Both the position numbers and the translations under genes were made by a program. Below, in pieces: positions 705 to 39,913 of a stretch of 64,000 bases of DNA. Numbering within the stretch: position 1 is the stretch's first letter; every line of letters starts with the position of its first letter. The stretch covers positions 5,431 through 69,430 of the forward strand of contig JAIQFF010000006.1 of NCBI GenBank assembly GCA_020073395.1. Reading direction: 5' to 3'. Below the pieces are notes generated by a model that saw only the letters and a program-made list of their open reading frames with translations, made no database searches and was not told where the DNA came from. This DNA is from Terriglobia bacterium. Its GTDB lineage: Bacteria; Acidobacteriota; Terriglobia; Terriglobales; Acidobacteriaceae.

Positions 705-3431
705 CTATTTCTTGGCGTCGGCCGTCCAGTTTGTGACTAGAACAAGCGGGGTTGGAATGCTTTCCGGGTAGGTACTGAAGATGAGGCGCTGGCCGTCCGG
801 GGCGACGTCGTAGGGATTTCCCAACGGGCCGAGATAGCTGACATCGAACATGGTGCGCGCCGGATCGACTTCAAACTCGGTACTCTTTGGATTGACTGTG
901 GCCGCGTGGATAGAACTATCGGTACCGGCAAACCAGATTTCCCTGCTGTCTCCTCGCCAGGTCGGAAATGTGCCTCCATTTTGCGAGACCTGCCACTTGC
1001 CTTCGCCGCTGGGGAAATGGGTCACGTAGACTTCCTCGCGTCCTGACTCGGTCGAACTGTAAGCCAGCCAGCGGCCGTCGGGCGAGAGGCGGTACTGAAT
1101 AATTCGTGCCAGGGCAGATGGCGCCTGCACCACGGCGAACGGTTTTTTCTCTCCCGTCAAAGGCAGCGCCCACACGCCTGCTCCGGTCGGACCGCTCTGC
1201 GCCAGGTGGACAAGGTAGCGGCCGTCAGGCGACCACTGGGGGAATAGCAGTGTGACCGGCGCGCCGGAGGAATCCCGATCCATCAGTACTTCTTCTTGTC
1301 CGGCACCGTTGGCCAGCCGTGAGCAGAGCGCAGTTCCGGTTATCGTGGTCGCGCCTTCCTGCCGCACAAAAACTACCCTTTGACCATCCGCTGACCACGA
1401 CGGCATGAGGTGGGTCCCGCCGCCAAAGGTAAGACGGGTTCGCGATCCGCGGGTCAGATCGAACACCCAGATGTCAGCCTGGGGCTCTCCCATGGCGACC
1501 GCCAGCCGCTTGCCGTCCTGAGAGATCCGGCCGCTGCCCTTGTAAAACGCCCGCTCTCCGACTTTTCCTAACACCTTTCCGCTGCGGTCGAGCCAGGAAA
1601 GATCGTTTCCAAGCATTTTCGCGCCCGGCTCGTAAACCAGCACGCCGTTCTGGCTGACTGCGAATGTGGTGTGCCAAGTTCCGGAATCGAATTCCACCAA
1701 ACTCGCCACCGGTATCGGATCACCCGAGAGCACGCCCTTGGCGGGATCGAACTTCTGCGCCAGCAATTGCGACTGGAGATGGTAGAGCACGTAGCCGGAG
1801 GCATACTGGGCGCCTGAATCGGAATCGAGCAGGCGCTTGTAGGAACCATCCTCCAGCGACCCGAAGAAGACGCCCTGCTCGGGATCGCCCGAGTGACTGG
1901 TAGCAAAGAAGAGGAAATGCTTGCCGTCGGGCAAAAACCAGGGCCAGCGATGGGTGGTGTGCTTGCCGGTTTCGAGCTTGGTCACCTGCACCGGGGTCCC
2001 GCCCGCGGCGCTGATACGCCACAACGAATCGCGATAATTAGGCTCGTAAAGGATTATGTTGTCCTGGTTCCATGGCCGTCCTCGCGGATTGGGGGTATCC
2101 GCCAGGACCGTGATCGGCCCGCCCAATGCCGGTATTTTCTTGAGATGGCCATCGGCAAAAAAACCCAGAAATTTCCCGTCGGGGGACCAGAAGGGAAAAG
2201 ACGCACCTTCGATGCCTTCGAGTTTCTTGGCTGCCAGTTCGCCGAGCGATTGCACCCAGATCGCGTTCTTCTCCTTCTGATTGCGGGTGCAGAATGCGAT
2301 CGCCGTACCATCGGCGCTTATCGCCGGTGGGCCCGAGAAGTCTCCAGTAAAGTCAAAGCCCATCTCGGCGGGCGGAGGCAAGAACGATCGCAAGGTGCGC
2401 GCCGGCTGGCGCTCCCGGAGGCTCGACCACAGCAACGCCGCCAGTAGCGCCGCTGCCAGGGCGGCCCAAAGTAGATGCGCGCGCCACCGCGCACGCAGGC
2501 GGACCGGCGGCGCGGGATTGACGCCGGAACCGCTGCTGGAGATCCAGCGCAACTCACGGGCAATGTCGGCGGCATTCTGCCAGCGCGATTCCGGATCCTT
2601 CGCCAGACACTCCTGGACAACGTGATCCAGCGCAGGGGGCGCCGCGGGCAGCATTTTCGTGATTGGTTCCGGCTCTTTCTCCAGGATGGCTGACGCAACC
2701 GAGATCTGGCTCTTCCCCTCAAAGGCGCGCCTGCCTGTGAGCATCTCGTAGAGCACGCAACCGAAGCTGAAGATATCGCTGCGCGCATCCGCCTCTTGTC
2801 CTTGCAGCACTTCTGGCGCCATGAACTGGAACGTGCCTACGATCGAGCCTTGCTGGGTGAGCGTCGCCGGCGGGCCACTGAGTGCCGAGAGACTCATGGT
2901 GGGAGTAGAGGGAGTCAGGCTCGCACGGGTCAGGGTCTGGGCGCTAAGCATGCCCGATGCGGGCTTAGCCAGGCCGAAGTCCAGCAACTTGGCACCCGAA
3001 GCGGTCAGCATGATGTTTCCGGGCTTGAGATCGCGATGTACGATGCCGGCGCGGTGCGCCTTCTCCAGTGCGTCGCAAATCTGTTCGCCGCACTCCAGCG
3101 CCTGCTTCACCGGCAGCGGACCTTTCTGCAGGCGCGAATCTAGACTCTCGCCCTGCACATACTCCATCACCAGGTAGTCGGTTCCGTCCTGGCTGCCCAC
3201 ATCGTGCAGCACACAGATGTGAGGATGATTTAAGGAAGAAATGGTGCGCGCTTCACGCTCGAAGCGTTGCTTGGCCTCGAGATTCGAGGAAAGATGCGAG
3301 GGCAGTATCTTGACCGCGACGATGCGGTCGAGGCGCGTATCGCGGGCGCGATACACTTCCCCCATGCCGCCGGCGCCCAGCGGCGATTCGATTTCGTAAG
3401 GTCCGAGTTTGGTTCCCGAGGCAAGAGACAT
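705..3431 (-). CDS. Hanks-type Ser/Thr protein kinase with TM anchor and periplasmic TolB/WD40-like beta-propeller repeats
   Basis: 908-aa ORF with a GAGGMGEVY glycine loop, VAVK, HRDLKPGNIM, DFG and APE motifs. One hydrophobic segment (LLWAALAAALLAALLW) is followed by repeated SPDGK/SPDGR-type propeller repeats. Confidence 0.9.
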   Translation of the reverse strand: MSLASGTKLGPYEIESPLGAGGMGEVYRARDTRLDRIVAVKILPSHLSSNLEAKQRFEREARTISSLNHPHICVLHDVGSQDGTDYLVMEYVQGESLDSRLQKGPLPVKQALECGEQICDALEKAHRAGIVHRDLKPGNIMLTASGAKLLDFGLAKPASGMLSAQTLTRASLTPSTPTMSLSALSGPPATLTQQGSIVGTFQFMAPEVLQGQEADARSDIFSFGCVLYEMLTGRRAFEGKSQISVASAILEKEPEPITKMLPAAPPALDHVVQECLAKDPESRWQNAADIARELRWISSSGSGVNPAPPVRLRARWRAHLLWAALAAALLAALLWSSLRERQPARTLRSFLPPPAEMGFDFTGDFSGPPAISADGTAIAFCTRNQKEKNAIWVQSLGELAAKKLEGIEGASFPFWSPDGKFLGFFADGHLKKIPALGGPITVLADTPNPRGRPWNQDNIILYEPNYRDSLWRISAAGGTPVQVTKLETGKHTTHRWPWFLPDGKHFLFFATSHSGDPEQGVFFGSLEDGSYKRLLDSDSGAQYASGYVLYHLQSQLLAQKFDPAKGVLSGDPIPVASLVEFDSGTWHTTFAVSQNGVLVYEPGAKMLGNDLSWLDRSGKVLGKVGERAFYKGSGRISQDGKRLAVAMGEPQADIWVFDLTRGSRTRLTFGGGTHLMPSWSADGQRVVFVRQEGATTITGTALCSRLANGAGQEEVLMDRDSSGAPVTLLFPQWSPDGRYLVHLAQSGPTGAGVWALPLTGEKKPFAVVQAPSALARIIQYRLSPDGRWLAYSSTESGREEVYVTHFPSGEGKWQVSQNGGTFPTWRGDSREIWFAGTDSSIHAATVNPKSTEFEVDPARTMFDVSYLGPLGNPYDVAPDGQRLIFSTYPESIPTPLVLVTNWTADAKK

Positions 3432-3621: not shown

Positions 3622-4248
3622 ATGTCCCATCGTATTTCGATCGTTTTTCTCTCGGTACTGCTTCTGTCAGTTCTCCATATCCAGGCAAAAGAGAAGAAAA
3701 AGCAGTTGCTCCCGGAAGATGTGCTGAGGGCGCAAACCGTCATGGTGGTGATTCATCCGGATGCGGGCGAGGCTCTGACCGCTCCCTTGGCCAATCGAAA
3801 TGCCCAGGATGAAGTGGAGAGAGCGATCACAAAATGGGGCAGGTTCGATCTGGTGATGGATGCGTACACCGCGGATCTAATTATCGCAGTTCGGAAGGGA
3901 AACAAGAGCGGCCCCATCATTGCCCATTCGCCTGCGGACGACCGACCGGTCATCTTTCAGCCTGGTATTGGTGACGCGCGCATCGGCCAGCAACAAGGTC
4001 GTCCCCCCGATCTGTCTCAGCCCCTTCCTGGCGGGATGGGGAACAGAGGCCCGCAACTCGGCACTCAGATTATTTCGTCTGACGATACCTTTGAAGTGTA
4101 TCGGGGGCGAATGGAGTATCCGCTGGATACGTCGCCGGTCTGGCGCTATATCGCGAAGGACTCGCTGAATGCGCCGCAGGTCCCGGCGGTCGAGCAGTTC
4201 CGCAAGGCCATCGAAGAATCCGAAAAGCAGCGCCAGCACAAACCTTGA
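3622..4248 (+). CDS. Hypothetical secreted protein
   Basis: I moved the start to the ATG at 3622, which is preceded by GGAGG. The N-terminal signal-peptide-like segment is MSHRISIVFLSVLLLSVLHIQA. No recognisable domain. Confidence 0.6.
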   Translation: MSHRISIVFLSVLLLSVLHIQAKEKKKQLLPEDVLRAQTVMVVIHPDAGEALTAPLANRNAQDEVERAITKWGRFDLVMDAYTADLIIAVRKGNKSGPIIAHSPADDRPVIFQPGIGDARIGQQQGRPPDLSQPLPGGMGNRGPQLGTQIISSDDTFEVYRGRMEYPLDTSPVWRYIAKDSLNAPQVPAVEQFRKAIEESEKQRQHKP

Positions 4249-4268
4249 GCCGGTTTCCCGCAACGACC

Positions 4269-5813
4269 ATGAATAAGATCATGCCGTGGCTGCCGTTGCT
4301 CCTTGTAGTCTCCTTCCTGCTGTTGCCGTGCTCGCATGCACAGGAACCCGGGTACGATCAGCCCTGGCGGCCGCAGTACCACTTCACGCCACCCCAGAAT
4401 TTCATGAACGACCCCAACGGGACGGTCTTTTACAAAGGCGAGTATCACCTGTTTTACCAGTACAATCCCGAAGGCAATGTGTGGGGACACATGAGCTGGG
4501 GACACGCCGTCAGCACTGACCTGGTGCGCTGGAAGAATCTGCCGGTCGCGCTGCATGAAGTCCCCGGCCAGTACATGGTTTATTCCGGAAGCGCGGTGGT
4601 GGACTGGAACAACAGCAGCGGCCTGTGCAAGAATCCCGATCCTCAAGACCGTTCATGCCTGGTCGCCATTTACACCGCGGCATATAAAGACCGGCAGAAA
4701 CAGCACATCGCGTTCAGCAACGACCGCGGCCGGACCTGGACGAACTACTCCGGCAATCCCGTGGCTGACCTGGATGCACCCGACTTTCGCGATCCCAATG
4801 TGTTCTGGTACACCCCGCAACACAAATGGATCATGGTCGCGGTCCTGGCGGATGCAAGAACGCTGGTGGTTCTCGACTCGCCCGACCTCAAGCATTGGAC
4901 GAAACGTTCTACGTTCGGCCCCGCTGGAGACACCGCCGGGCAGTGGGAGTGTCCCGACCTGATAGAACTTGCCGTTGAGGGCACTGCCGAAAAGAAGTGG
5001 GTGCTCATCATCAATCGCAATCCGGGGGCGCCGGCCGGCGGCACGGGAGTTCGCTACCTGATCGGCAAGTTCGATGGCGCAAACTTTGCCAGCGAAGTTC
5101 CAGACGCTCCCGCGCTTTGGGCCGATTGGGGCAAGGACTTCTACGCCACCAACACCTGGAACGACCTGCCGCCCGGCGACGGGGAGCGTGTGTGGATGGG
5201 CTGGTTCAGCAACTGGCAGTATGCGAACACCGAACCGACCGTGCTGTGGCGCGGAGGGCAATCCGTTCCGCGTACGTTGAAACTGCGCCGCTATGCGGAT
5301 GGGCTGCGTCTGGTGCAGCGGCCGGTGCGGGAACTGCAAAGCCTGCGGCACGATAAACTGCGAACCGAGAATTCCAGCGTGGCCCAGGCAAACCAGAAGC
5401 TGCGTGACACTGCTACAAGAGGCGAAGTTTACGAGCTCGAAGCAGAGTTACAACCTGGGGAAGCACACGAAATTGGTTTTCGCCTGCGCAAGAGCAAGGC
5501 TGCCGAGACCCTAGTAAGTTTCGACGCTGTCCATCGCGAGGTTTATGTTGACCGGACGCACTCCGGCGAGATTTCGTTCAGCAAGGACTTTCCCGGACGT
5601 TTCTCGGTCAAAGTAGAGCAAAGCGCAAGCATCAAGCTGCAGGTATTCGTGGACCGGTCGAGTGTCGAGGTGTTTGTGAATGACGGCGAACGCGTCCTTT
5701 CCAACCGCATTTATCCTCCGCCGGGCAGCGATGGCATAGAAGTTTATGCCGAGGGGAGTGGTGCGAGGGTCGTCTCATTAACCATTTGGAAATTGAATTC
5801 TGCGTGGAAGTAG
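4269..5813 (+). CDS. Secreted glycoside hydrolase family 32 (beta-fructofuranosidase / levanase-type)
   Basis: WRPQYHFTPPQNFMNDPNGTVFYKGEYHLFYQYNP (the GH32 NDPNG block), FRDP and WECPD motifs. An N-terminal signal peptide follows the internal ATG at 4269. Confidence 0.9.
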   Translation: MNKIMPWLPLLLVVSFLLLPCSHAQEPGYDQPWRPQYHFTPPQNFMNDPNGTVFYKGEYHLFYQYNPEGNVWGHMSWGHAVSTDLVRWKNLPVALHEVPGQYMVYSGSAVVDWNNSSGLCKNPDPQDRSCLVAIYTAAYKDRQKQHIAFSNDRGRTWTNYSGNPVADLDAPDFRDPNVFWYTPQHKWIMVAVLADARTLVVLDSPDLKHWTKRSTFGPAGDTAGQWECPDLIELAVEGTAEKKWVLIINRNPGAPAGGTGVRYLIGKFDGANFASEVPDAPALWADWGKDFYATNTWNDLPPGDGERVWMGWFSNWQYANTEPTVLWRGGQSVPRTLKLRRYADGLRLVQRPVRELQSLRHDKLRTENSSVAQANQKLRDTATRGEVYELEAELQPGEAHEIGFRLRKSKAAETLVSFDAVHREVYVDRTHSGEISFSKDFPGRFSVKVEQSASIKLQVFVDRSSVEVFVNDGERVLSNRIYPPPGSDGIEVYAEGSGARVVSLTIWKLNSAWK

Positions 5814-5934
5814 CGAGCGTGAACTCTTTGAGGAGTTCAGCGAGCAGGTCACCGCAAGGACACAGGGTTGACTGGAAGCCCGCTGTGTGTAAGTAGCTCA
5901 GTGGCTGAAGCCGCCATCAACCGCAGGTCTTAAT

Positions 5935-5952
5935 GCAGCGCTGAAGCGCTGC
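5935..5952. repeat. GC-rich hairpin in the intergenic region
   Basis: GCAGCGC-tgaa-GCGCTGC, about 120 nt downstream of the GH32 stop. Its role is unclear. Confidence 0.4.
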
Positions 5953-6095
5953 TCCACCCTAACCCCAAATTCTCACCCTAGCGAAAGTCAAGAATTGCTG
6001 GGGACCGACGTTGGAACACCTGTCCCCTTCGGCGTAGAGTACTCTCCGTGACGGCCGCAATCGTCTGAAGCTCCGCTTGTTTGCGGTCGCACCTG

Positions 6096-6911
6096 ATGGC
6101 TGAGAGCGAAATCCAGAAGTTGACTAAAGAACCTTCCTTTCTGCTTACGAAGTGGTACCTGGACTGCGTCGATGAGAGCGGCGATGCAGCGATTGTGTAT
6201 GTGGCGAACCTGCGATGGAACAAACTGTCCATACGCTACGGGAGTTTGCTCACGGTCCTGGACGGTCGTGCCCACTCCTCTTCCTCGCTGCGAAAGTGCG
6301 CCTTTCCTCGGCTGGAGGGCGACACCACGACTCTCACCCTGCCTCACCTCGGCATCATGGGGACCTGGCGGGCACTCCGGGCGCCGGTGAAGCGAACCGT
6401 CTTTGACGGCGAAGATGGTTCCGCTGATTGGCATTGTCATCAACCCATGGCGCAGGTCGATCTGCTGCTTCAAGGCAAGACTCGGATGACCGGGTTGGGC
6501 TATGCCGAATGCCTGACCCTATCGGTCCTTCCCTGGAAATTGCCCCTGGAAGAATTGCATTGGGGACGATTTCTCTCGGAGCAAGACGCTCTGGTCTGGA
6601 TCGATTGGCGAGGTCCGCAGCCATGGCGGACCCTGATTCATAATAGCGAAGAACACGAAATCCAGTCGCTCACGGAATCGGAGATACTCTTCGCGCCAAG
6701 CGGAACCAGCCTTGAACTTGATCGTGGACTGGTACTGCGCAGCGGTCAGCTCGGACAAACGGTTTTTGCCGGAGTCTCCCACCTGGCCAAGCTGCTCCCG
6801 CACAACATGCTGTCGGTGGAAGAATGTAAGTGGCGCAGCCGCGGCGTATTGCAGACCGGGAACAGCAGCGCATCGGGGTGGGCGATCCATGAGATCGTCA
6901 AGTGGAAATGA
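6096..6911 (+). CDS. Hypothetical protein, possibly CrtC/AttH-like (carotenoid 1,2-hydratase-type lipocalin fold)
   Basis: The block TKWYLDCVDESGDAAIVYVANL resembles the WWY(F/V)DA..DDG...(I/V) start of CrtC-family proteins. GLGYAECLT and ELHWGRF resemble later CrtC blocks. The match is by memory only. Confidence 0.35.
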   Translation: MAESEIQKLTKEPSFLLTKWYLDCVDESGDAAIVYVANLRWNKLSIRYGSLLTVLDGRAHSSSSLRKCAFPRLEGDTTTLTLPHLGIMGTWRALRAPVKRTVFDGEDGSADWHCHQPMAQVDLLLQGKTRMTGLGYAECLTLSVLPWKLPLEELHWGRFLSEQDALVWIDWRGPQPWRTLIHNSEEHEIQSLTESEILFAPSGTSLELDRGLVLRSGQLGQTVFAGVSHLAKLLPHNMLSVEECKWRSRGVLQTGNSSASGWAIHEIVKWK

Positions 6912-8830
6912 CGAAATCCACCTTGGGCAAATTGTTGTATGGGGCGCTGTTCACGGTAGCCCTGCCGGTTCTGCTGGTGGTCTGGGCAATGCAAAGCCAC
7001 GAATTGGTCGAACTGCCGGCAATTCATTCTTTGCCTTGGGGGGTCGGCACTATCACGGTGGGGTCATTGCTGGTCGCGCTGGGAATGGCTTCGCTATGGC
7101 TGGTGGGCGGCGGCCTCCCCATGAACGCGTTCCCTCCTCCGCGTTACGTTTCGAGCGGAATTTATAGTTTGTTTTCTCATCCGATTTATGTCGGCTTTTC
7201 GCTGGTGTGCATCGGCACCGCAATCGCCGCTGGTTCTGCCAGTGGCCTGTGGCTGGTGTCCGCTACCGTGATCCTGGCTAGTGCTGCGCTGGTATTGGGA
7301 TATGAACTGCCGGATTTGCAGACACGCTTCAACGGCGCGTGCCCTGGACAACGCCTCTTGCCCGCCGACGACCAATCTGCGCCATCCAGGATGGAGCGCA
7401 TTCGCTGCTATCTGACCGTGTTGTTGCCATGGTTCCTGATTTACGAAGCTTTCGTGGTCCTCGGAGTCCCGCCCGATGCGAAGATCGCATGTTTTCCATT
7501 GGAGTCCCGCCTGCCTGTGTTGCCGTGGACCCAGATTCTCTATGACAGTGTTTACGTGGTGGTATTGCTGGTTCCGTTAATCGTTCGCACGCGGCACGAC
7601 CTTCGCTTGTTCTCCAGTCGTGGCCTGCTCGCGATGATGATGGTTTTTCCCTTCTACCTGGCGGTGCCGCTGATTGCCCCGCCTCGTCCGTTTGCCGCCA
7701 GCGGACTTCTGGGAGAGTGGCTGAATTTGGATCGCGGGCACGACAGTGCCGCCGCTGCGTTTCCTTCCTACCACGTGGTCTGGGCGTTTATCGCCGCCGA
7801 GGCCCTGGCCCACACTTCGTGGCAAAAACGATTGTGGCGAACCTGGGCGGTGCTGGTGTCGGCCAGTTGTGTGACCACGGGAATGCACGCCCTGGTTGAT
7901 GTGATTGCCGGTCTTCTGGTGGCCGCAGTGGTCATTCGGATGGATCGAGTTTGGTCTTTCCTGCGCAACTTTTCGGAGACCGTTGCCAACTCCTGGAAAG
8001 AATGGCGGCTGGGGCCGTCACGTGTGATCAATCACGGAGCTTACGCGGGCGCCGGAGTCTTCATCGGAATTTGGATTATCGACACTCTGCTGGGCCCGGG
8101 CAAGAGTGCGATACCAATAGCGATTTTTTTGGGAGGCTGCGTCGGAGCCGCGTTGTGGGCACAGGTCATCGAAGGCTCTCCAGCTCTGCTTCGGCCACTC
8201 GGCTTTTATGGCGGGATGATCGGTACCTGGACTTGCGGGGGTGTCGCCGCCTGGCTGACGCGGACCCCCATCTGGCCGGTCCTGGCGGCGCTGGTTGTGG
8301 CTGCGCCCTGGATCCAAGGCATTGGACGGCTGCGCTGCCTGGTGCAGGGTTGCTGTCACGGGAGGGCCGCCGCTGACAATATAGGCATCCGCTACGCTCA
8401 TCCTCGATCGCGGGTTTGGCGGGTGCTTTCTCTTCGCGGCGTTCCCGTCCACGCCACACCGCTGTATTCCTTGCTGTGGAATGTCGTGGTGGCTCTGGTC
8501 GTAACGCGGATCTATCTGCTGCACGCTCCCAGCGCCATGGTGAGCGGAGTTTATCTGATACTGTCCGGCGCAGGAAGATTTGTGGAAGAGGCTTACCGCG
8601 GAGAGCCGCAAACTCCTATATTCGCGGGCTTGCGTCTGTACCAATGGCTCGCAGTGACCACACTGGTATTGGGTGCACTCATCACCACCGTGAAACACAG
8701 CCCGCCATCGCCGTGGCCTGTGCTCCACGCTTCTTCGATTTTCGTAGCGCTAGCTTGCGGCATCGGGGCATGGCTTCTCACTGGAGTGGATTTTCCCGAA
8801 TCGAATCGCAGATTCGCCCGCCTGACCTGA
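6908..8830 (+). CDS. Three-domain polytopic membrane protein: ICMT/PEMT-like methyltransferase + PAP2 phosphatase-like + Lgt (diacylglyceryl transferase)-like
   Basis: The ATG at 6908 overlaps the upstream stop (ATGA). Domain 1 has YVSSGIYSLFSHPIYVGFSLVCIG...YELPDLQTRFNG (ICMT/PEMT signature). Domain 2 has FPSYH and MHALVDVIAG (PAP2 C2 and C3, HxxxD). Domain 3 has GRLRCLVQGCCHGR and VHATPLYSLLWN (Lgt-like G-R-x-G-C..GCC.G and H-P-x-Q-L-Y-E-like blocks). Confidence 0.7.
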   Translation: MTKSTLGKLLYGALFTVALPVLLVVWAMQSHELVELPAIHSLPWGVGTITVGSLLVALGMASLWLVGGGLPMNAFPPPRYVSSGIYSLFSHPIYVGFSLVCIGTAIAAGSASGLWLVSATVILASAALVLGYELPDLQTRFNGACPGQRLLPADDQSAPSRMERIRCYLTVLLPWFLIYEAFVVLGVPPDAKIACFPLESRLPVLPWTQILYDSVYVVVLLVPLIVRTRHDLRLFSSRGLLAMMMVFPFYLAVPLIAPPRPFAASGLLGEWLNLDRGHDSAAAAFPSYHVVWAFIAAEALAHTSWQKRLWRTWAVLVSASCVTTGMHALVDVIAGLLVAAVVIRMDRVWSFLRNFSETVANSWKEWRLGPSRVINHGAYAGAGVFIGIWIIDTLLGPGKSAIPIAIFLGGCVGAALWAQVIEGSPALLRPLGFYGGMIGTWTCGGVAAWLTRTPIWPVLAALVVAAPWIQGIGRLRCLVQGCCHGRAAADNIGIRYAHPRSRVWRVLSLRGVPVHATPLYSLLWNVVVALVVTRIYLLHAPSAMVSGVYLILSGAGRFVEEAYRGEPQTPIFAGLRLYQWLAVTTLVLGALITTVKHSPPSPWPVLHASSIFVALACGIGAWLLTGVDFPESNRRFARLT

Positions 8831-9057
8831 GGCCAACCCGTTATGGGATAAGTTCCACCCTGCTTGCCTCCGCCCGGCGGTAACCTCCAAGGTGTAGACC
8901 GCGGCTAACTACTAGCGTCTAATTTCACCATTGATCTCCTTCAAAAAATCGGCGGTTTACGAAACTTTACGGTTGTTGACCGAGTTTTTACCCGATGGGT
9001 GGGCTGCGCAGTGTTGAATATACTAATGGTTCTGGAAATTTATAGGAATGTCCGCGC

Positions 9058-12000
9058 ATGAGATGCGCCGAGTCCAGGTGCGACCGCCAGACGTCTTTCG
9101 CTTCCAGGACGTGGTTGATCGCCATCCGGCGCGCCGTGCTTCTCCTGCTGCTCGCCGTCAGCGCGCTGGGGCAGGACGTGGCCGTGCCCCCCAGTTTCTC
9201 GATTACCGGCGTGGTGAAATCGGGTAACACGCCAATCCCAGGCGCAACCGTAAGCGCAACTAACTCTTCCAACGAAACCAAGACTACAACTTCCACGGAT
9301 ACGAATGGTACCTACAGGCTTCAGGTTGCCGCCCCGGGGAAGTATCAGCTGCGAGTTGAGATGCCCGCATTCGCGCCGAGTACGGGGGAAATTGTCCTGG
9401 GTGAGGCAAGCAGTCGCGCCGACCTTGAATTGACGTTGCTCTCGCGGACGCAACAAGCTGAACGCGCCCAGCAGCGACCGGCAACGGCCAGAGCCGGTCG
9501 AGGATTTCAGAGCCTGTCGGTCTTGCAAGGACTGGCCAGCACTGAAGCCAGCAACGGCAGCGGCGCGGACCAGATTGTGCCTGCCGGAATGCCGATCCCG
9601 GGCGTGGCCGCGGACGCTGCTACAGAATCGGTTTCGTTTTCCGGTAGCAACTCAAGCGTGGGCATGTTCGGCATGAGCACCGACGAACTGGAGCAGAGGA
9701 TGCGCGAAGGCCGCGAAGAAGGCGGATTGGGTGGTGGCCCGGGCGGTGGTGGCCCGGGCGGTGGTGGCCCGGGCGGTGGTCTTCCGGGTGGAGGCGGTCC
9801 TGGTGGCAGGTTCGGCGGCTTTGGCGGCGGAGGAGGACGAGGCGGCCCCATGGTCCTGGGCGGGGGGAGAGGCAGATTTGACGTCAATCGACCACACGGT
9901 TCGGCCTTTTACTCAATCGGCGATTCTGCCCTGGATGCCGCGCCTTATGCTCTCAGCAATAGTTCGGTGGACAAAGCCAGCTACACGCGGCAGCGCTTCG
10001 GCGCCTCGCTGGGCGGGCCGCTGAACATCCCGGGAATCTACAAGGGCGGTAGCAAGACTTTTTTCTTTGCGAACTACACCGGCTCACGCGGCGATTCGCC
10101 CTATGACGCTTTTTCCTTTGTGCCCACCGTCGTTGAACGCGGCGGCGTTTTTTCCGGAGTAGCGGGAGTTCAGCTGATCAATCCCAACAACGGGCAGCCC
10201 ATCCCGGGCAACAATTTGCAAAACGCCGGGCTGACCATCAATCCTGCTGCGCAAGGGCTCTTGCAGTACATCCCGTTGCCCAACGTAAACAACACGGCTC
10301 CTGACGCGCCGAACTTTCATTTTGTGACATCGACGCTCAACGATAGCGACGATTTGAATATCCGCCTGAACCAGTCCCTGGGCGCCGCCAGCAACGGCCG
10401 CGGCCGGGGACAGCGCGGCCCGCGAAATAATTTGAATTTCGGCTTTCACTACCACGCCGCCAGTGCGAACCTGACCAATCCTTTTCCCAGCGTGGGCGGC
10501 CATACCAGCACCCGCAGCTTCGACGTGCCCATCGGGTACGTCCGGACCTTTGGCAAAGTGATCAACAATGCGCGCCTCGACTTCAATCGCTCCCGTATCA
10601 GCACGCAAAACCTCTACGCCTTTAACCAGGACATCACTGGAGATCTCGGCATAACGGGCGTCTCTACCAACCCCTTTGACTGGGGCCTGCCCAACCTCTC
10701 GTTCACTCACTTCGGCAGCCTGAACGATACCAACCCGCAATTGCTACGCAACCAGACCTGGACGTTTTCTGACAGCCTGATCTACCGCCGCGGAAAGCAC
10801 ACCTGGCGCTGGGGCGGGGATTTCCGGCGCATTCAGGTGAACACCCAGACCGACAGCAATGCCCGCGGGACTTTCACCTTTACCGGTGTGAACTCAGGTT
10901 ACGACTTTTCCGACTTTCTGCTGGGGCTGCCGCAGTTGACTTCGGTGCAGTTTGGTAACAACAGCTATCATTTTCGCGGCAATTCCTGGGACCTGTTCGT
11001 GCAGGATGAGTGGCGACTGCGCGGCAACCTTACATTGAATCTGGGTGTGCGCTACGAATACATCTCGCCGTTTTCCGAACTGAACGATCGCATTGTGAAT
11101 CTGGACTTGCCGGTGGGCTTTATCTCGCCACCCGTCCCCGTGCAGGTGGGCGAGACCGGGCCGTACAACGGCCAGCTTCCCGTGACCCTGGTGCGCCCCG
11201 ACCGCAATAATTTCGCGCCGCGCCTCGGCCTGGCCTGGAAACCGCTGCGCAACACGGTGGTGCGTGCGGGATATGGCATCAACTACAACACCAGCGCCTA
11301 TCAAAGCATTGTGCAGAACATGGCCTTCCAGCCGCCGTTTTCAACCACGGCGACGGCCACGCAATCGGCGACCACCCAACTCACTCTGCAGGATGGATTT
11401 CCACCCGTCCCTCCCGGTTCCATTACCAACAATTTTGGCGTAGACCCCAATTACCGCCTGGGCTATGTGCAGATCTGGAATGTCGACATTCAACAGCAGA
11501 TTCGGCCCACACTGATCATGAACCTTGACTACACCGGAACCAAAGGCACACGGCTCGACATCCTGGAAGCCCCGAACCGCACCGAGACCGGCGTGCTCTT
11601 TCCCGGGGTGCAGCCGTTTTACTGGGAAGACTCGGTGGGAGATTCGACCGCTAACGCATTGTCAGTCCGCGTCCGCAAACGGCTGCAGGCGGGCTTTTCG
11701 ATTGGCGGCCGCTACACTTTCTCGAAGTCGCTCGATAATGCCTCCACCATCGGAAGCGGCGAGCCCCTGGTCGCGCAGGGCGCGGGACGCACCGCAGTTT
11801 CCGGCACCACCAACGTGGCGCAGAATGCTTTCGACCTTGCCGCCGAGCGGGGCTTGTCCAGCTTCGATCAGCGGCACAGTTTCACCGCTGACTATCTGTG
11901 GGAGCTTCCCTTCGGCCACGACCGGCGCTGGCTCACGGGCAACAGCCCGTTGCGGGCCATCTTCGGAGACTGGAATTGGAGCGGCGACTGGACCATCGCT

Positions 12001-12411
12001 TCGGGGCTGCCCTTCACTCCCCGCATCCTCGGCGACCGGTTGGATGTGAGCCGCGGCACCAACGGCACGGTGCGAGCTGATGTGGTGCCGGGGCAGTCCG
12101 TCAGCCTGCCAAATCCGTCCATCGAAGAGTGGTTCAACACAGCTGCGTTCGTGGCTCCGGCAGGCGCGTTTGGCGATGCGCGCCGCAATAGTATCGAAGG
12201 ACCAGGCAGCCGGAAGGTCGATATGGCATTCACCAAGATTTTTCCCCTCAGCGAAACACGCTTCCTGGAGTTTCGAGCACAGTTCTCGAATATTTTCAAT
12301 ACTCCCCAATATGTTGGGATCGATACAGTCGTGAACTCGCCCACCTACGGCCGGGTGATTTCGGTGGGCGCGATGCGTTCCCTGCAACTGACTGCGAGGT
12401 TCAGATTCTGA
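9058..12411 (+). CDS. Giant outer-membrane receptor-like protein (CarboxypepD_reg-like N-domain + TonB-dependent-receptor-type barrel)
   Basis: 1117 aa with a signal peptide, an ITGVVKSGNTPIPGATVSATN...TDTNGTYRL Ig-like domain, a Gly-rich linker, a long beta-rich region and a terminal ...LQLTARFRF. I did not see a clear TonB box. Confidence 0.8.
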   Translation: MRCAESRCDRQTSFASRTWLIAIRRAVLLLLLAVSALGQDVAVPPSFSITGVVKSGNTPIPGATVSATNSSNETKTTTSTDTNGTYRLQVAAPGKYQLRVEMPAFAPSTGEIVLGEASSRADLELTLLSRTQQAERAQQRPATARAGRGFQSLSVLQGLASTEASNGSGADQIVPAGMPIPGVAADAATESVSFSGSNSSVGMFGMSTDELEQRMREGREEGGLGGGPGGGGPGGGGPGGGLPGGGGPGGRFGGFGGGGGRGGPMVLGGGRGRFDVNRPHGSAFYSIGDSALDAAPYALSNSSVDKASYTRQRFGASLGGPLNIPGIYKGGSKTFFFANYTGSRGDSPYDAFSFVPTVVERGGVFSGVAGVQLINPNNGQPIPGNNLQNAGLTINPAAQGLLQYIPLPNVNNTAPDAPNFHFVTSTLNDSDDLNIRLNQSLGAASNGRGRGQRGPRNNLNFGFHYHAASANLTNPFPSVGGHTSTRSFDVPIGYVRTFGKVINNARLDFNRSRISTQNLYAFNQDITGDLGITGVSTNPFDWGLPNLSFTHFGSLNDTNPQLLRNQTWTFSDSLIYRRGKHTWRWGGDFRRIQVNTQTDSNARGTFTFTGVNSGYDFSDFLLGLPQLTSVQFGNNSYHFRGNSWDLFVQDEWRLRGNLTLNLGVRYEYISPFSELNDRIVNLDLPVGFISPPVPVQVGETGPYNGQLPVTLVRPDRNNFAPRLGLAWKPLRNTVVRAGYGINYNTSAYQSIVQNMAFQPPFSTTATATQSATTQLTLQDGFPPVPPGSITNNFGVDPNYRLGYVQIWNVDIQQQIRPTLIMNLDYTGTKGTRLDILEAPNRTETGVLFPGVQPFYWEDSVGDSTANALSVRVRKRLQAGFSIGGRYTFSKSLDNASTIGSGEPLVAQGAGRTAVSGTTNVAQNAFDLAAERGLSSFDQRHSFTADYLWELPFGHDRRWLTGNSPLRAIFGDWNWSGDWTIASGLPFTPRILGDRLDVSRGTNGTVRADVVPGQSVSLPNPSIEEWFNTAAFVAPAGAFGDARRNSIEGPGSRKVDMAFTKIFPLSETRFLEFRAQFSNIFNTPQYVGIDTVVNSPTYGRVISVGAMRSLQLTARFRF
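9731..9780 (+). repeat. Perfect 15-bp tandem repeat (3.3 copies) inside the OMP gene
   Basis: GTGGTGGCCCGGGCG occurs three times and is followed by GTGGT. It encodes (GGGPG)n within GGLGGGPGGGGPGGGGPGGGLPGGGGPGG. Confidence 0.95.
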
Positions 12412-14534
12412 TGCGCATGGCCACCAATTGCGGGCACAGGTTCTTCCAGAAGACGGGCGAGGACGCCCGTCGCTCCATCCTCGCGTCTCTGCTGGTAGTC
12501 GTGATGCTGTGCACCGGCGTTACTTCGCAGGAATCGTCCAGCGAGTACACCTTCCGCTCCAAGACTGAACTGGTGCTGGTGAATGTGACCGTGCGCGACA
12601 AGAACGGCAATACGGTGCGCGACTTGAGGCGCGAAGACTTTACCCTTCTCGAAGATAACAGGCCGCAGCAGGTGCTCTCTTTCGATCTGGAAAATACCGA
12701 TGCCGTGCTTTCAACTGCCGCCACCGAAGCGCCGTTGCTTCGCCCGGTTCAACCGCAGACCACAGACGCGACCGCCACCCTCGCAACCCGCCCGCTGAAA
12801 GACCGGCGGCTGATCATCCTGTTTTTTGATCTCAGCTCCATGCAACCGGGTGAAGTTGACCAGGCGACGACCGCGGCCCAGAACTATGTGGACAAGCAGA
12901 TGGTGGCCGCCGACCTGGTGGCCGTGGTCTCGCTGGGCAGCACGCTAAGCGTGAATCAGGATTTCACTTCCGATCGGGCGCTGCTGAAGAAAGCGCTGCA
13001 GGCCTTCAATCTTGGCTCCGGCGCGGGCTTCGAAGAAGGCAGCACGGGCACAACCGAAGGCACATCCGAAACCGGCGGGTCGTTCACCGTGGACGACACC
13101 GAGTACAACATCTTCAACACCGATCGCCGGCTGCAGGCCCTGCGCTCGATCGCCGACAAGCTGGGGACGATCAATGAAAAGAAATCTCTGATCTATTTCT
13201 CCAGCGGCATGGACCGCACCGGCATCGAGAACCAGTCGCAGCTGCGTTCCGCGACCAACGCCGCAGTGCGGGCCAATATGGCCATTTACACCATGGATAT
13301 TCGCGGCCTGCAGGCCCTGGTGCCAGGCGGCGAAGCCCAGAATGCCAGCTTGCGCGGGACTTCACCTTACTCCGGGAAGTCCGTGGCCGGCCAGTTCGAT
13401 TCCAATGCCACCACCCAGGAAACGCTGGTCACCCTGGCTGGCGACACCGGCGGGCGCGCATTTCTCGACTCGAACGATTTTGGCAGGGTGTTTACCGGCG
13501 TGCAGCAGGACACTTCGCTGTACTACCTTCTGGGGTATCACAGCACGAATTCGGCGCGGGACGGGCGCTTCCGGCGGATCACCGTCAGGGTCAACCGGCC
13601 CGGTGTCAAGATCGACTTCCGCCGCGGCTACTACGCTCCCGCCGACTTCCAGCATTCCACCCGCGACGATCGCGAACGCCAGCTGGACGAAGAGCTGGCC
13701 TCAGATCTCCCGACCACCGATTTGCCGGTATATTTGTCCGCCGCCTACTTCCGCATCGCTGACCGCAAATTTTATGTGCCCGTGTCAGTGGTCGTGCCCG
13801 GTTCCCAGATTCCTTTCACCCACAACAACGACCAGGACCGCGCCACGCTGGATGTTCTGGGCATCGTGACCGATCCGGAGAAGCGTCCGGTGGGTCAGAT
13901 ACGGGACACGGTCAAGCTGGCGCTGAACACATCGCAGCTGGTAGAACGCAAGAACGTGCAATACAACAGCGGTTTCGTCCTGCCACCCGGCACCTATCAT
14001 CTCAAGTTTGTGGTGCGCGAGAACCAGAGCGGGCGACTGGGCTCATTCGAAACCGATCTCACCGTACCCGACCTGAAATCGGTCCCGGTAAAGATGAGTT
14101 CGATTGTGCTGGCAAACCAGTTGCAGCCGGCCGGCAAGCACAAGAGCGACAACCCGCTGGTGCGCGATGGGTCAGAGGTAATTCCCAGCGTCACTCATGT
14201 GTTCTCCGCCGGCCAGCACCTGTACTTCTACTACGAGGTCTATGACCCGGCGCATGGGGCCACAAATACCAACGCGCCCGCGAATGATCGCAGCAGTCCG
14301 GCCATCCGCCTGCTGACCAATGTCGCGTTCTTCCGCGGAAATACCAAGGCGTATGAGACTCCGCTAGTCGAGAGCGAGCAACTGAATGCGCCCGACCGCA
14401 AGGCTGCGGTTTTCCAGCTTGACGTGCCGCTTACCCAGCTCAAACCCGGTTTCTACACCTGCCAGGTCAATGTGATTGACGATGCCGCCGGACAGTTCCG
14501 CTTCCCGCGCGTGGCATTATTAGTACGCCAATAG
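12411..14534 (+). CDS. VWA-domain protein of the acidobacterial VWFA-related family (TIGR03436-like)
   Basis: The block FRSKTELVLVNVTVRDKNGNTVRDLRREDFTLLEDNRPQQV is typical of this family, followed by VWA-like LIILFFDLSSM / SLIYFSSG motifs. The start overlaps the stop of the OMP gene (TGATG). Confidence 0.8.
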   Translation: MRMATNCGHRFFQKTGEDARRSILASLLVVVMLCTGVTSQESSSEYTFRSKTELVLVNVTVRDKNGNTVRDLRREDFTLLEDNRPQQVLSFDLENTDAVLSTAATEAPLLRPVQPQTTDATATLATRPLKDRRLIILFFDLSSMQPGEVDQATTAAQNYVDKQMVAADLVAVVSLGSTLSVNQDFTSDRALLKKALQAFNLGSGAGFEEGSTGTTEGTSETGGSFTVDDTEYNIFNTDRRLQALRSIADKLGTINEKKSLIYFSSGMDRTGIENQSQLRSATNAAVRANMAIYTMDIRGLQALVPGGEAQNASLRGTSPYSGKSVAGQFDSNATTQETLVTLAGDTGGRAFLDSNDFGRVFTGVQQDTSLYYLLGYHSTNSARDGRFRRITVRVNRPGVKIDFRRGYYAPADFQHSTRDDRERQLDEELASDLPTTDLPVYLSAAYFRIADRKFYVPVSVVVPGSQIPFTHNNDQDRATLDVLGIVTDPEKRPVGQIRDTVKLALNTSQLVERKNVQYNSGFVLPPGTYHLKFVVRENQSGRLGSFETDLTVPDLKSVPVKMSSIVLANQLQPAGKHKSDNPLVRDGSEVIPSVTHVFSAGQHLYFYYEVYDPAHGATNTNAPANDRSSPAIRLLTNVAFFRGNTKAYETPLVESEQLNAPDRKAAVFQLDVPLTQLKPGFYTCQVNVIDDAAGQFRFPRVALLVRQ

Positions 14535-17610: not shown

Positions 17611-18879
17611 GTGCGAATTCCGATCGAGAACCACTGGCGCGGGCCAGAAGCGGACGTGACGCGGACGCGGCGAACCAGCAAATCGCCTCGACGACTCCTC
17701 GCGGCGACCCTCACCTTAGCGGCGTTAGCCGTCTCCATGGTCGGGTGCAACGCGGGCTCCAAACCTAATACGGCTCGGGCCTTCACCCAGATGGCGGTGC
17801 CTGTCGCCGTCGCCACAGCCGAACGTCGCGACGTGCCCGTGTTCCTGAAAGGGCTGGGCAGCGTAACCGCTTCCAACACGGTCAGCGTGAAGAGCCGGGT
17901 GGACGGACAACTGGCCCAGATCAATTTCACGGAAGGCCAGCACGTGAATAAGGGAGACCTGCTGGCGGTTATCGATCCCCGTCCATTCCAGGTCGCCCTC
18001 GACCAGGCCCAGGCAGCTTTGTTCCGCGACCAGGCCCAACTGAAGGACGCGCGCCTGAATTACGAGCGCTTCAAGAGCTTGCTGGATGATTCGGGAGCGA
18101 TGTCCCGACAGCAGGTGGATACGCAGAGGGCCACTGCAGACCAGTTGGAGGGAGCGGTCCGCTCCGACCAGGCAGCGATCGACAATGCTAAGTTGAACCT
18201 CGTGTACTCGCACATCACGGCTCCGATCAGCGGCCGCATCGGACTGAGGCTGGTGGATGTGGGCAACATGGTGCATGCCGCCGATACAACCCCGTTGTTG
18301 GTGATCACCCAGTTGCAGCCCATTGCGGTCCTGTTTACGCTGCCGGAAGACAGTCTGCTCAATGTGTCCCAGCACATGCACAAGGGCACGCTTCCAGTCG
18401 AAGCCTACAGCCGGGACGATCAAACCCGGTTAGCCACCGGCAAGTTGCTGACCATCGACAATCAGATTGACCAGACCACCGGGACCGGACGTTTAAAAGC
18501 AATGTTCGACAACCCGGACGACGCCCTCTGGCCCAACCAGTTCGTTAACGTGCGGCTGCTGCTGGAGACGCACAAAGGCAGCATCACGATTCCTTCAGTC
18601 GCGGTCCAGAACGGCCCCCAGGGAAGCTATGTATTTACGGTCAAACCCGATAAAACGGTTGCCGTGAGCCCGGTCACGGTTTCGTTCACTCAGAGCAACG
18701 TGGCATCGATCGCCAGCGGAGTCGCCCCTGGAGATGTAGTAGTGGTGGACGGGCAGGACAAGCTGCAAGCCGGAACCAAAGTGGATCCGCACACGGGGGC
18801 CGGGGGCGAAAACCGGAACGCACAGTCCCCTGCCACACAGTACCAGCCTGCACAGTCTTCTCCTACGGGAGCGCCATGA
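17611..18879 (+). CDS. mdtA: RND efflux periplasmic adaptor, MdtA-like
   Basis: GTG start after GGGGGA and a lipobox-like MVGC. Long colinear similarity to E. coli MdtA as I recall it (SRVDGQL..., [27 protein letters not shown]). Confidence 0.8.
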
Positions 18880-21800: not shown

Positions 21801-21992
21801 GGAAGCGGCACCGGATCGGAGTTGCGCCACCCCTTGGGCATCACCATCGTCGGCGGCCTGCTGGTGAGCCAGTTGCTCACGCTTTACACCACGCCGGTCG
21901 TGTATCTCTGGTTCGACCGGCTGGCACAGCGTTTCTCACACTTGAACATCGGCAACACTATTGAGGAGCCGAGCGGGGCCCCGGCGGACTAG
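18876..21992 (+). CDS. mdtB: RND inner-membrane transporter, MdtB-like (AcrB/HAE1 superfamily)
   Basis: 1038 aa with the N-terminus [18 protein letters not shown] and the typical 12-TM, two-large-loop RND layout. It overlaps mdtA by 4 nt. Confidence 0.85.
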
Positions 21993-22010
21993 CCGTCTTT
22001 GGATTCGGGC

Positions 22011-25000: not shown

Positions 25001-25130
25001 CACTCTCTTCACCACGCCCGTCGTCTATCTTTATCTCGATCGCCTCCGCCTGATGCTGGGACGCCAAAGCCACGTGGATCCGAACCAGATGGCGCCGCTC
25101 TCTCCGCGGCCCACGCCCGCTGGCGATTAG
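22011..25130 (+). CDS. mdtC: RND inner-membrane transporter, MdtC-like
   Basis: It is the second RND paralogue, directly downstream. I moved the start to the ATG at 22011 (MNISAPFIKRPIGTSLL). Confidence 0.85.
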   Translation: MNISAPFIKRPIGTSLLAAALLMAGALAFNYLPVAPLPQVEFPVISVGAGLPGASPETMASAVATPLERQFGRIAGVNQMTSTSQLGSTNITLQFDLNRNIDAAARDVQAAINAARSQLPANLPGNPTYRKVNPADAPILILALTSDIITLPRMYDAADSILSQKLAQVEGVGQVFAGGGAKPAVRAELNPTLLNKLGISLDTVRTALGSANANRPKGAIDGPINAWTLDANDQIFTADQYRRLIVSYNKGAPVRLGDVGSVADSVEDIRNMGLSSGKPAVLIIIFRQPGANIIATVDRVRATLPLLRSSISPAIDVSVVMDRTTTVRASVHDIEVTLIISVILVILVVFAFLRTFRATIIPSVAVPLSLVGTFGMMYLLNYSLDNLSLMALAISTGFVVDDAIVVLENITRHIEDGMAPVAAAFRGAREIGFTVLSMSTSLVAVFIPILLMGGIVGRLFREFAVTLSVAIAVSLLLSLTLTPMMCAKFLRSADQEKHGRIYRFSEKIFDTTLRLYSRALKLVLRHQPLTLLITIGTAALSVYLYIVVPKGFFPQQDTGRVMGSVQAAQDISFAAMQAKMKQFVSIVMQDPAVETVVGFAGGNTSANSGRMFVTLTPLSQRKISADQVIGRLRRKLAVVPGATLFMQSAQDLTIGGRQSQAQFQYTLQGENLNDLNYWSPLLLQKLRSLPELRDVNTDQQDKGLEATVIIDRDTAARLGVDAGDVDNALYDAFGQRQVSIMYKALNQYHVVMEVAPQFSNSTDALQNIYVRAANGTAVPLSSFAHFGPSNTPLAVSHQGQYPSVTLSFNLAPDVSLGAATDAIDKAQRAINFPPTINASFQGTAAAFQSSLASEPLLILAALITVYLVLGMLYESYIHPITILSTLPSAGVGAILALLLTHSELNVMGLIGIILLIGIVKKNAIMMIDFALETERAGKTPAESIYEACIRRFRPIMMTTMAALLGGLPLALGTGTGSELRRPLGITIVGGLIMSQALTLFTTPVVYLYLDRLRLMLGRQSHVDPNQMAPLSPRPTPAGD

Positions 25131-37469: not shown

Positions 37470-37473
37470 GTTC

Positions 37474-39906: not shown

Positions 39907-39913
39907 TTATTCC

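Follow-up and report, generated by a model that had tools for sequence, protein, structure and literature searches.

Within a 64,000-nucleotide stretch of DNA from a Terriglobia bacterium (assembly GCA_020073395.1, contig JAIQFF010000006.1, positions 5,431 to 69,430 of the forward strand; hereafter the window), two overlapping open reading frames (ORFs) form what we propose to be a self-contained, horizontally mobile two-gene module for the tailoring of lipids. ORF A encodes a soluble protein and ORF B a polytopic membrane protein in which a PEMT/ICMT-type methyltransferase, a PAP2 domain and an Lgt-like domain are joined in a single chain. The overall picture that we favor, and which may well prove wrong, is that of a module for alkylation and methylation of a lipid or isoprenoid at the cytoplasmic leaflet of the membrane. 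A preliminary description of this locus had suggested a compact module that tailors lipids or isoprenoids; that general idea is upheld here, and its isoprenoid side gains from the discovery of a squalene/phytoene synthase (SQS/PSY)-like gene upstream of ORF A in several related loci.

ORF A (6096..6911, + strand) specifies a soluble, cytoplasmic protein of 271 amino acids (aa) from which a hydrophobic N-terminus or signal peptide is absent. It extends from an ATG at 6096 to a TGA at 6909-6911, with an alternative TTG start at 6081. ORF B (6908..8830, + strand) encodes a polytopic protein of 640 aa that starts at an ATG at 6908 and stops at 8828-8830. The start codon of B and the stop codon of A share nucleotides within an ATGA (6908..6911, + strand), an arrangement indicative of translational coupling, as had been claimed; the ORF coordinates and length of B first reported agree with the ORF translations, where every peptide string quoted at the time was also found. 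In 74 of 78 related loci, the stop codon of A overlaps the start selected for B or lies no more than 5 nt from it, the B starts having been assigned automatically and being approximate. A scan of positions 5700-9200 for promoters and terminators returned counts no higher than in shuffled sequence.

The pairing of A and B is obligate. A same-strand A homologue lies immediately upstream of B in 78 of the 80 species-level loci kept; of the two others, one lies at a contig edge and one is disrupted. Overall, A directly precedes B in approximately 90 loci drawn from the Acidobacteriota, Bacteroidota, Ignavibacteriales, Myxococcota, Methylomirabilota and Planctomycetota. The arrangement persists in distant branches, namely the cultured Panacibacter ginsenosidivorans, a Planctomycetaceae metagenome-assembled genome (MAG) and three further lineages. 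Indeed, one protein of 854 aa (P0258) is a single-chain fusion of the two, in which an A domain (aa 3-259) is joined to B by a 12-residue linker; its PAP2 catalytic residues have decayed, with the methyltransferase and Lgt-like motifs remaining intact. No third gene is as faithful: when all flanking ORFs were clustered, none was conserved in more than 16 of 81 loci, and Pfam scans of the neighbors in the Minicystis, Bacteroidota, Ignavibacteriales and Methylomirabilota loci revealed unrelated genes.

The distribution of the pair is sparse and wide. More than 100 full-length, three-domain B homologues share 54-99% identity, those of 85-99% identity occurring in MAGs of the Terriglobales and Terriglobia, as would be expected if the window is acidobacterial. 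With one genome taken per species, relatives of B were detected in 228 of 185,579 species genomes, a lower bound because the search patterns derived from the window's own subfamily. Most carriers belong to the Terriglobales, Acidobacteriaceae, Terracidiphilus, Sulfotelmatobacter, Solibacter and Bryobacteraceae; further carriers include MAGs of Bacteroidota, Ignavibacteriales and Methylomirabilota, together with the cultured myxobacterium Minicystis rosea. The hosts are mainly bacteria of peat, bog and soil, and in them the two genes behave like a mobile unit. Complete genomes are available for two cultured carriers, M. rosea DSM 24000 (CP016211, ~5.368 Mb) and P. ginsenosidivorans (CP042435, A being FRZ67_18115).

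The three-domain architecture that had been attributed to B is borne out by Pfam, with every domain exceeding its threshold at a score far beyond chance: PEMT (PF04191) at aa 46-138 with 30.7 bits (cut-off 25), PAP2_3 (PF14378) at aa 207-343 with 55.7 bits (cut-off 27; E 7.5e-15), PAP2 (PF01569) with 34.8 bits (cut-off 27.2) and LGT (PF01790) at aa 431-593 with 74.6 bits (cut-off 24.9; E 9.9e-21). The AlphaFold2 (AF2) model of B (pLDDT 82.2, pTM 0.84), together with hydropathy, gives 18 predicted transmembrane (TM) helices, of which TM1-4 belong to the methyltransferase, TM5-10 to the PAP2 domain and TM11-18 to the Lgt-like domain. Conservation is distributed unequally among the three. In a comparison of 15 divergent members of the B family that separates core from accessory parts, 17% of columns are invariant in the methyltransferase and 17% in the Lgt-like domain, as against 1% (2 of 184) in the PAP2 domain.

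The first of these domains (aa 1-145; 6908..7342, + strand), comprising TM1-4 and the Pfam PEMT match, is a membrane methyltransferase of the type dependent on S-adenosylmethionine (SAM). It had been described as ICMT/PEMT, of which the PEMT half stands and the ICMT half does not, as the ICMT family (PF04140) scores only 16.5 bits against a cut-off of 24; by its sequence, then, the domain is a member of the PEMT/ICMT superfamily and not an ICMT proper. A weak local NCBIfam match to LmtA was also recorded. Two motifs, GGGLPMN..PPPRYV..G.Y...SHPIYVGF and GYE.P....RF, are positioned on predicted cytoplasmic loops and include counterparts of (R/x)HP.Y.G and E(E)..L...FG, which we take from the ICMT literature to be the SAM-binding motifs. 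P92, Y94, G96, E133 and R140 are invariant among the divergent members, F141 is nearly so and H91 is present in 14 of the 15.

The PAP2_3 domain (aa 160-343; 7385..7936, + strand; matched by Pfam PAP2_3 and PAP2), of the phosphatase or phosphotransferase kind, has six TM helices, with motif C2 (PSYH, nt 7763-7774) and motif C3 (SCx5Hx3D, nt 7865-7900) both on predicted periplasmic loops. In the window, B retains the catalytic triad, H289 lying in PSYH and H327 and D331 within SCVTTGMHALVD; however, the Arg of C3 is replaced by Cys321, the Lys of C1 is absent and R260-P is all that is recognizable of C1. The closest structures in Foldseek searches are sphingomyelin-synthase-related protein (SMSr) and inositol phosphorylceramide (IPC) synthase/Aur1, followed by LpxE and PgpB. 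The PAP2 motifs noted in the preliminary description are present in the window's own protein but are not conserved across the family: 10 of the 15 divergent members retain H289, H327 and D331, and five have lost this triad, namely P0258 and four Bacteroidota-type proteins, that of Panacibacter included. This loss indicates that some members of the family can do without catalysis by PAP2 and that the three activities are unequal partners. The six-helix scaffold is kept in all 15, triad-less members included, and presumably preserves the topology.

The third domain was previously recognized as an Lgt-like C-terminal half. It is related to Lgt but proves to be a complete Lgt-fold domain (aa 365-640; 8000..8827, + strand), with an arm-1 hairpin, seven TM helices, a head and an extra eighth TM helix; it is not an orthologue and is predicted to face the cytoplasm. 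Secondary structure assignment by DSSP on the B model locates the hairpin at aa 365-374, ahead of the TM helix at 377-395. Foldseek aligns B with Lgt (5azb) over 267 columns (E 3.9e-6, 24% identity, target-normalized TM-score 0.59). The additional eighth helix is predicted to return a conserved basic tail to the active-site side; this tail, DFPESNRRFARLT (nt 8729-8827), carries the invariant pattern DFP.SN.R..RL. That the domain is not an Lgt orthologue is clear at the level of sequence from the equivalog models, which score far under their cut-offs (NF000778, 56.7 vs 334; TIGR00544, 39.3 vs 118.9).

The pattern of residues kept and replaced in this domain is instructive. In a profile alignment to 5AZB, the counterpart of the Lgt signature motif G142-G154 is GRLRCLVQGCCHG (8324..8362, + strand). 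B does not possess the Lgt signature G142-R-L-G-N-F-I-N-G-E-L-W-G154, HGGL or Y26, with R143 and G154 of the signature being kept. Among the divergent members, the equivalents of R143 (R474), G154 (G485) and H196 (H515) are invariant, as are those of R239 (R557), E243 (E561) and R246 (R564), which form the phosphate-binding and hydrogen-bonding network. Elsewhere, Y26 is replaced by H376, H103 by Y434 (Phe in two members), E202 by S521 (Ala in three), N146 by C477 and E151 by C482. The polar network that holds the phosphatidylglycerol (PG) head group, facing the acceptor, thereby gives way to an invariant C477/C482/C483/H484 cluster (CxxxxCCH), which is presumably similar to the Cys/His sites at which thiol-alkylating enzymes bind zinc.

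The predicted orientation of B is with both its N- and C-termini inside. With the N-terminus set inside, loop charges averaged over 35 B-family sequences give a mean of 33.9 Lys and Arg residues in the loops assigned to the cytoplasm and 7.3 in those assigned to the periplasm. This orientation positions the methyltransferase motifs HP.Y.G and E......RF inside, matching the requirement for SAM, and PAP2 motifs C2 and C3 outside, where every known membrane PAP2 enzyme has them; the arm-1 hairpin of the Lgt-like domain is placed inside. It also agrees with the P0258 fusion, where the soluble A domain is attached to the N-terminus of B. The PAP2 and Lgt-like domains are connected by an amphipathic, Arg-rich linker helix (aa 344-364; 7937..7999, + strand) identified from the model and hydropathy. 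The low mean hydropathy of helix 345-360 (about -0.1) suggests that it does not cross the membrane, in which case the Lgt-like domain starts on the cytoplasmic side; preceded by an even number of helices, ten, and no extra crossing, it would be upside-down relative to Lgt, its arms, head and central cavity facing the cytoplasm.

Comparison with Lgt itself points the same way. Arm-1, arm-2 and the head of E. coli Lgt are periplasmic and negatively charged, and its cytoplasmic face is positive (Mao 2016, PMC4728403). By our count, E. coli Lgt has 13 Lys and Arg residues in its cytoplasmic loops and, in its periplasmic segments, seven against 11 Asp and Glu residues. In the B family, the segments homologous to the periplasmic parts of E. 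coli Lgt contain 17.1 Lys and Arg residues, with a head of net charge +6.2, and those homologous to its cytoplasmic loops contain 2.1. We therefore regard the Lgt-like domain as probably inverted and acting on the cytoplasmic leaflet, a site whose reducing conditions would suit its three invariant free cysteines. Oriented in this way, B could not act on exported lipoboxes.

ORF A belongs to a large family that annotation has overlooked. A word-indexed search recovered 890 homologues, all annotated as hypothetical, and an exhaustive profile search gave 1,176 clusters at 50% identity, of which 621 had E<=1e-30. ORF A has no Pfam or NCBIfam match at E<=1, and its family profile has no match among PDB sequences. 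The AF2 model is confident (pLDDT 88.8) and all-beta and, when searched with Foldseek, returned AttH (2ICH), kievitone hydratase (7A0T) and 25-phosphosteroid lyase (9G4C) at E ~1e-9 and probability 1.0, together with the fungal decalin Diels-Alderases Fsa2, Phm7 and CghA (7E5T being among the matches), again at E ~1e-9 and probability 1.0. Query-normalized TM-scores against AttH-fold structures were 0.5-0.63. Judged from its model, therefore, ORF A adopts the AttH/CrtC two-barrel fold. The label CrtC/AttH-like that it had been given thus holds at the level of fold (AF2, Foldseek) and fails by sequence profiles (Pfam, NCBIfam, PDB): when 28 ORF A homologues were searched singly, none matched a CrtC or AttH family at E<=10, and neither CrtC_N nor Lipocalin_9 of Pfam matched any of the 28. 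ORF A shares the CrtC scaffold, lies outside the CrtC family (PF07143) by sequence criteria and is the founding member of an unnamed family. No Pfam or NCBIfam model represents A. Given its mobility among peat and soil bacteria, the pair probably specifies a modification of membrane or envelope lipids that is at present invisible to annotation.

A direct comparison with CrtC employed a profile built by hand from three authentic carotenoid 1,2-hydratase sequences whose genes reside on photosynthesis plasmids. The hhalign alignment to the ORF A family is weak and of low confidence (E 0.016, probability 2.8%); it is nevertheless collinear over 147 columns, with the common motifs GxGY(F/A)(D/E), WGR, (F/K)(Y/W)SR and HE. 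Mutagenesis has established His239, Trp241, Tyr266 and Asp268 (R. gelatinosus numbering) as essential residues of CrtC (PMC4717167). Through this low-confidence alignment, W241 and Y266 correspond to W112 and Y136 of ORF A, both invariant, D268 to the near-invariant E138 (a change of Asp to Glu) and H239 to A110, so that the His is lost. The ORF A family has many invariant polar residues.

The loci in which the PAP2 domain has decayed offer a view of what the module may require. An SQS/PSY-like gene of 281-292 aa lies directly upstream of A, overlapping or abutting its start, in three of these five loci: L084 of Panacibacter (7139-8017), L087 (5144-6004) and L094 (4859-5704). The copies, members of an unannotated family, share 57-65% mutual identity and have the expected protein length, with Asp-rich motifs, YLDDVVDGD and D.EDFEDD, at the expected positions. 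The Pfam SQS_PSY match falls below the gathering score (E 1e-3, 19 bits), and there are weak matches to NCBIfam HpnC and CrtB and to PDB structures of phytoene synthase (5IYS, E 0.08) and HpnC (4HD1, E 0.5). Of the remaining two loci, L093 has a PlsC-like acyltransferase gene and a DAGK_cat lipid kinase gene before A, the latter overlapping A, and L095 has an NMO/FabK-like gene. The paper on the 25-hydroxysteroid kinase gave no indication of whether its kinase-lyase pairing parallels that of DAGK_cat and A in L093. Additionally, four of the five have genes for an ABC ATPase and an ABC-2 permease intervening between A and B (L087:6834-8194, L093:6807-8167, L094:6576-7936 and L095:6844-8210), and a sulfotransferase gene follows B in L087. 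Such gene contexts suggest cytoplasmic lipid and isoprenoid-diphosphate chemistry followed by export, and the SQS/PSY-like gene upstream of A provides independent support for an isoprenoid substrate.

These observations can be accommodated in a single scheme, for which we infer the substrates and the order of steps. Cytoplasmic A would dock on the N-terminus of B. A may first bind a hydrophobic, probably isoprenoid-derived substrate on the cytoplasmic leaflet and protonate or hydrate a carbon-carbon double bond by means of its conserved Trp, Tyr and Glu. The Lgt-like domain would then transfer an alkyl group, namely diacylglyceryl, for which an anionic glycerophospholipid, for example PG or phosphatidic acid (PA), would be the donor and phosphate the leaving group, this phosphate being held by the equivalents of R143, R239, E243 and R246; the acceptor may be a nucleophile positioned at the Cys3-His cluster, most simply a thiol. 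In a third step, the PEMT/ICMT-type domain would methylate the product. The periplasmic PAP2 site would be accessory, either providing a lipid phosphate or pyrophosphate or trimming one; in PAP2-decayed lineages, an SQS/PSY-like synthase or a lipid kinase may stand in for it as a source of supply in the cytoplasm, usually together with an ABC-2 exporter. It is tempting to speculate further that the inverted Lgt fold with its Cys3-His, possibly metal, site transfers an alkyl group, diacylglyceryl or prenyl, to S or O in the cytoplasm and makes an undescribed lipid, lipidated small molecule or lipidated protein in concert with the methyltransferase and the CrtC-like partner; so specific a proposal is, in our estimation, more probably wrong than right by a wide measure. 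Were it true, soil bacteria from at least six phyla would possess an analogue of the sequence in which lipidation precedes methylation.

Several points weigh against this scheme. The link between A and CrtC is statistically weak by sequence, as the hhalign values given above make plain, and the catalytic His239 is lost; ORF A could consequently be a lipid-binding or lipid-transfer protein and not an enzyme. The topology is a prediction from helix counting and the positive-inside rule only. The SQS/PSY-like assignment is itself weak (19 bits; PDB matches at E 0.08 and 0.5), and the gene is seen only in a single Bacteroidota-type sub-branch and is missing from the lineage of the window. The Cys3-His cluster may have a structural role, and neither a thiol as acceptor nor PG as donor is a necessity.

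Foremost among the alternatives is a remodeling of lipid head groups that involves no isoprenoid. Here, the Lgt-like domain would move the diacylglyceryl group of PG or PA to a small polar molecule, for instance an amino acid or thiol acid, with release of glycerol phosphate or inorganic phosphate; the PEMT-like domain would N- or O-methylate the resulting head group, PAP2 would recycle lipid phosphates and A would be an accessory binding protein. The product would be a phosphorus-free or otherwise modified lipid suited to acidic, phosphorus-poor soils. There are precedents in the methylation of phosphatidylethanolamine (PE) to phosphatidylcholine and of diacylglycerylhomoserine (DGHS) to diacylglyceryltrimethylhomoserine (DGTS). 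This explanation would account for a first domain that exceeds the PEMT threshold and not that of ICMT, for a PAP2 domain nearest to the head-group transferases SMSr and IPC synthase, for the operon that combines a PlsC-like acyltransferase with a diacylglycerol-kinase-type lipid kinase, both makers of PA, and for the preponderance of peat, bog and soil hosts. Furthermore, ubiquitous substrates would suffice, as befits a two-gene unit that functions in six phyla. It nevertheless leaves a strictly conserved CrtC-fold partner, with its many invariant polar residues, without a role, does not explain the SQS/PSY-like genes and sits uneasily with the dispensability of PAP2 catalysis. We consider it unlikely, albeit the most serious competitor to cytoplasmic-leaflet alkylation and methylation of an isoprenoid-derived lipid.

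A less probable, indeed rather doubtful, alternative resembles the processing of CaaX proteins. The inverted Lgt-like domain would S-alkylate a cytoplasmic cysteine, whether in a peptide, in a protein or as free cysteine or homocysteine, with a diacylglyceryl or prenyl group, and the ICMT-like domain would methylate the adjacent carboxylate. ICMT-family enzymes methylate S-lipidated cysteine, and the invariant CxxxxCCH at the acceptor side would be in keeping with a thiol-alkylating zinc site; both active sites are predicted to be cytoplasmic. The formation of a thioether is, moreover, the very chemistry of Lgt (PMC4728403). However, no substrate gene is conserved alongside the pair, ORF A itself ends in ...VKWK with no C-terminal Cys, the ICMT Pfam score lies under its threshold and the hydratase-like fold of A is again left without a role.

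The structural neighbors of the PAP2 domain invite the thought of a sphingolipid or ceramide module, in which A would be a candidate two-lipocalin ceramide binder like yeast Svf1, and PAP2_3 the key enzyme, a transferase of phospho-head groups to ceramide akin to sphingomyelin synthase (SMS) or IPC synthase. That the PAP2 domain is structurally closest to SMSr, IPC synthase and Aur1 is compatible with this, the Bacteroidota and Myxococcota include known producers of sphingolipids, and the role of A could be modeled, by analogy, on that of Svf1, a lipocalin-type ceramide binder (PMC10038888). We judge the idea very unlikely given that it would make a key enzyme of the least conserved part of B, whose triad is lost in five of the 15 divergent members; in addition, PAP2 is predicted to be periplasmic and A cytoplasmic, and no spt or other ceramide-synthesis genes are present among the neighbors scanned.

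More improbable still is a plain housekeeping fusion of a PE N-methyltransferase, a phosphatidylglycerophosphate (PGP) or lipid-phosphate phosphatase and a prolipoprotein diacylglyceryl transferase. The three Pfam domains above threshold might suggest as much, and NCBI and JGI name the homologues after these families. We reject this reading on account of the Lgt equivalog scores, the replacement of Lgt residues Y26, H103, N146 and E151, a predicted cytoplasmic orientation that could not serve exported lipoproteins, a distribution limited to the 228 species genomes found (at a lower bound) in contrast to a near-universal Lgt, and the invariable tie of B to ORF A. Weakest of all is the link to the membrane-spanning and ether lipids of Acidobacteria (iso-diabolic acid and branched glycerol dialkyl glycerol tetraethers, brGDGT) raised in the preliminary description, which the preponderance of Terriglobia among carriers might be thought to favor but which we find unsupported and reject as scarcely credible, since the pair also occurs in Bacteroidota, Ignavibacteriales, Planctomycetota, Myxococcota and Methylomirabilota, no conserved lipid-synthesis genes, and no radical-SAM or plasmalogen-type genes, were seen among the neighbors scanned, and none of the domains has a chemistry for carbon-carbon coupling of tails or for ester reduction.

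The pair's neighbors within the window, among them GH32, a TonB-type barrel, efflux pumps and MacB/FtsX permeases, appear unrelated to it. Immediately upstream of the pair, and apparently unrelated to it, is a gene for a secreted glycoside hydrolase of family GH32, of the levanase/inulinase type (4245-5813, + strand). Downstream, positions 9058-14534 (+ strand) include a protein of 1,117 aa with CarboxypepD_reg and OMP_b-brl_4 domains, resembling a TonB-dependent receptor and bearing a long Gly-rich stretch of low complexity; its stop abuts, with a 1-nt overlap at 12411, the start of a protein of 707 aa that has no Pfam match. This barrel protein recurs downstream of the pair in close relatives only (16 of 81 loci). 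At 705-3431 (- strand), a protein of 908 aa was judged by eye to have a Ser/Thr kinase-like N-terminus (GxGxxGxV...HRDLKPxN), a TM segment and a long TolB/beta-propeller-like region. Ordinary efflux machinery is encoded at 17611-25130 (+ strand) and 32279-34183 (- strand), in the form of AcrB-type resistance-nodulation-division (RND) genes and a gene for an outer-membrane efflux protein (OEP); of the RND ORFs, 18876-21992 was covered by the scan, and 21999-25130 has a similar length. Finally, approximately eight ORFs of 800-880 aa are located at 34914-49687 (- strand), 52085-54622 (- strand), 55132-57585 (+ strand) and 57632-60067 (- strand); the three scanned are duplicated MacB_PCD/FtsX permeases, and the array resembles a large expansion of one permease family over 25 kb.

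Each domain of B derives from a known superfamily; it is the combination, the partner, the predicted inversion and the Cys refit that appear to be new. Our literature searches found no description of the domain combination, the obligate CrtC-fold partner, the inversion of Lgt or the refitting of its site with a Cys cluster, and none of these, nor the three-domain architecture as such, is represented by a Pfam or NCBIfam model. The Lipocone paper mentions Lgt and PAP2 in passing only.

Placed beside known systems, ORF A resembles CrtC in its size (271 aa against 289-303 aa) and in the N-terminal motif WY(L)D...G that the two have in common, and the substrates of the CrtC/AttH-fold group are hydrophobic, for the most part isoprenoids or polyenes. 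In contrast to CrtC, A is always coupled to B and never adjoins crt genes. The methyltransferase domain is like other members of the PEMT/ICMT superfamily (PEMT/Opi3, Ste14/ICMT, Leptospira LmtA and MddA) in having four TM helices and HP.Y.G and E......RF motifs predicted to be cytoplasmic, and differs from them in being short (~145 aa), in its family-specific GGGLPMN..PPP loop, in the replacement of RHP by SHP and in its fusion to two further enzymes. Similarly, the PAP2 domain shares with the PAP2_3/SMS/IPC-synthase enzymes (8IJQ, 9VJ4 and 9IVC) and the PAP2 phosphatases (LpxE, 6EBU, and PgpB) a predicted six-helix architecture with both termini inside, and with known PAP2 enzymes the predicted placement of C2 (PS.H) and C3 (S.x5Hx3D) on exoplasmic loops; unlike these, it lacks the C3 Arg, which is Cys instead, and the C1 Lys, and its triad has decayed in part of the family.

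The most far-reaching comparison is with Lgt, which is near-universal and regarded as a single-function, essential envelope enzyme and an antibiotic target, and whose fold has so far been known only from a periplasm-facing enzyme of lipoprotein maturation. The whole of the fold seen in 5AZB is present in B, and the same type of reaction, an alkyl transfer with a phosphate-ester leaving group, is probable. The domain of B nevertheless departs from Lgt in sitting behind ten other helices, in adding an eighth TM helix and a conserved tail, and in having a head that is of net charge +6 and predicted to be cytoplasmic where that of Lgt is negative and periplasmic. It is, therefore, a tantalizing prospect that a widespread paralogue of Lgt operates on the other face of the membrane, which, if true, would mean that this fold supports other lipid chemistry.

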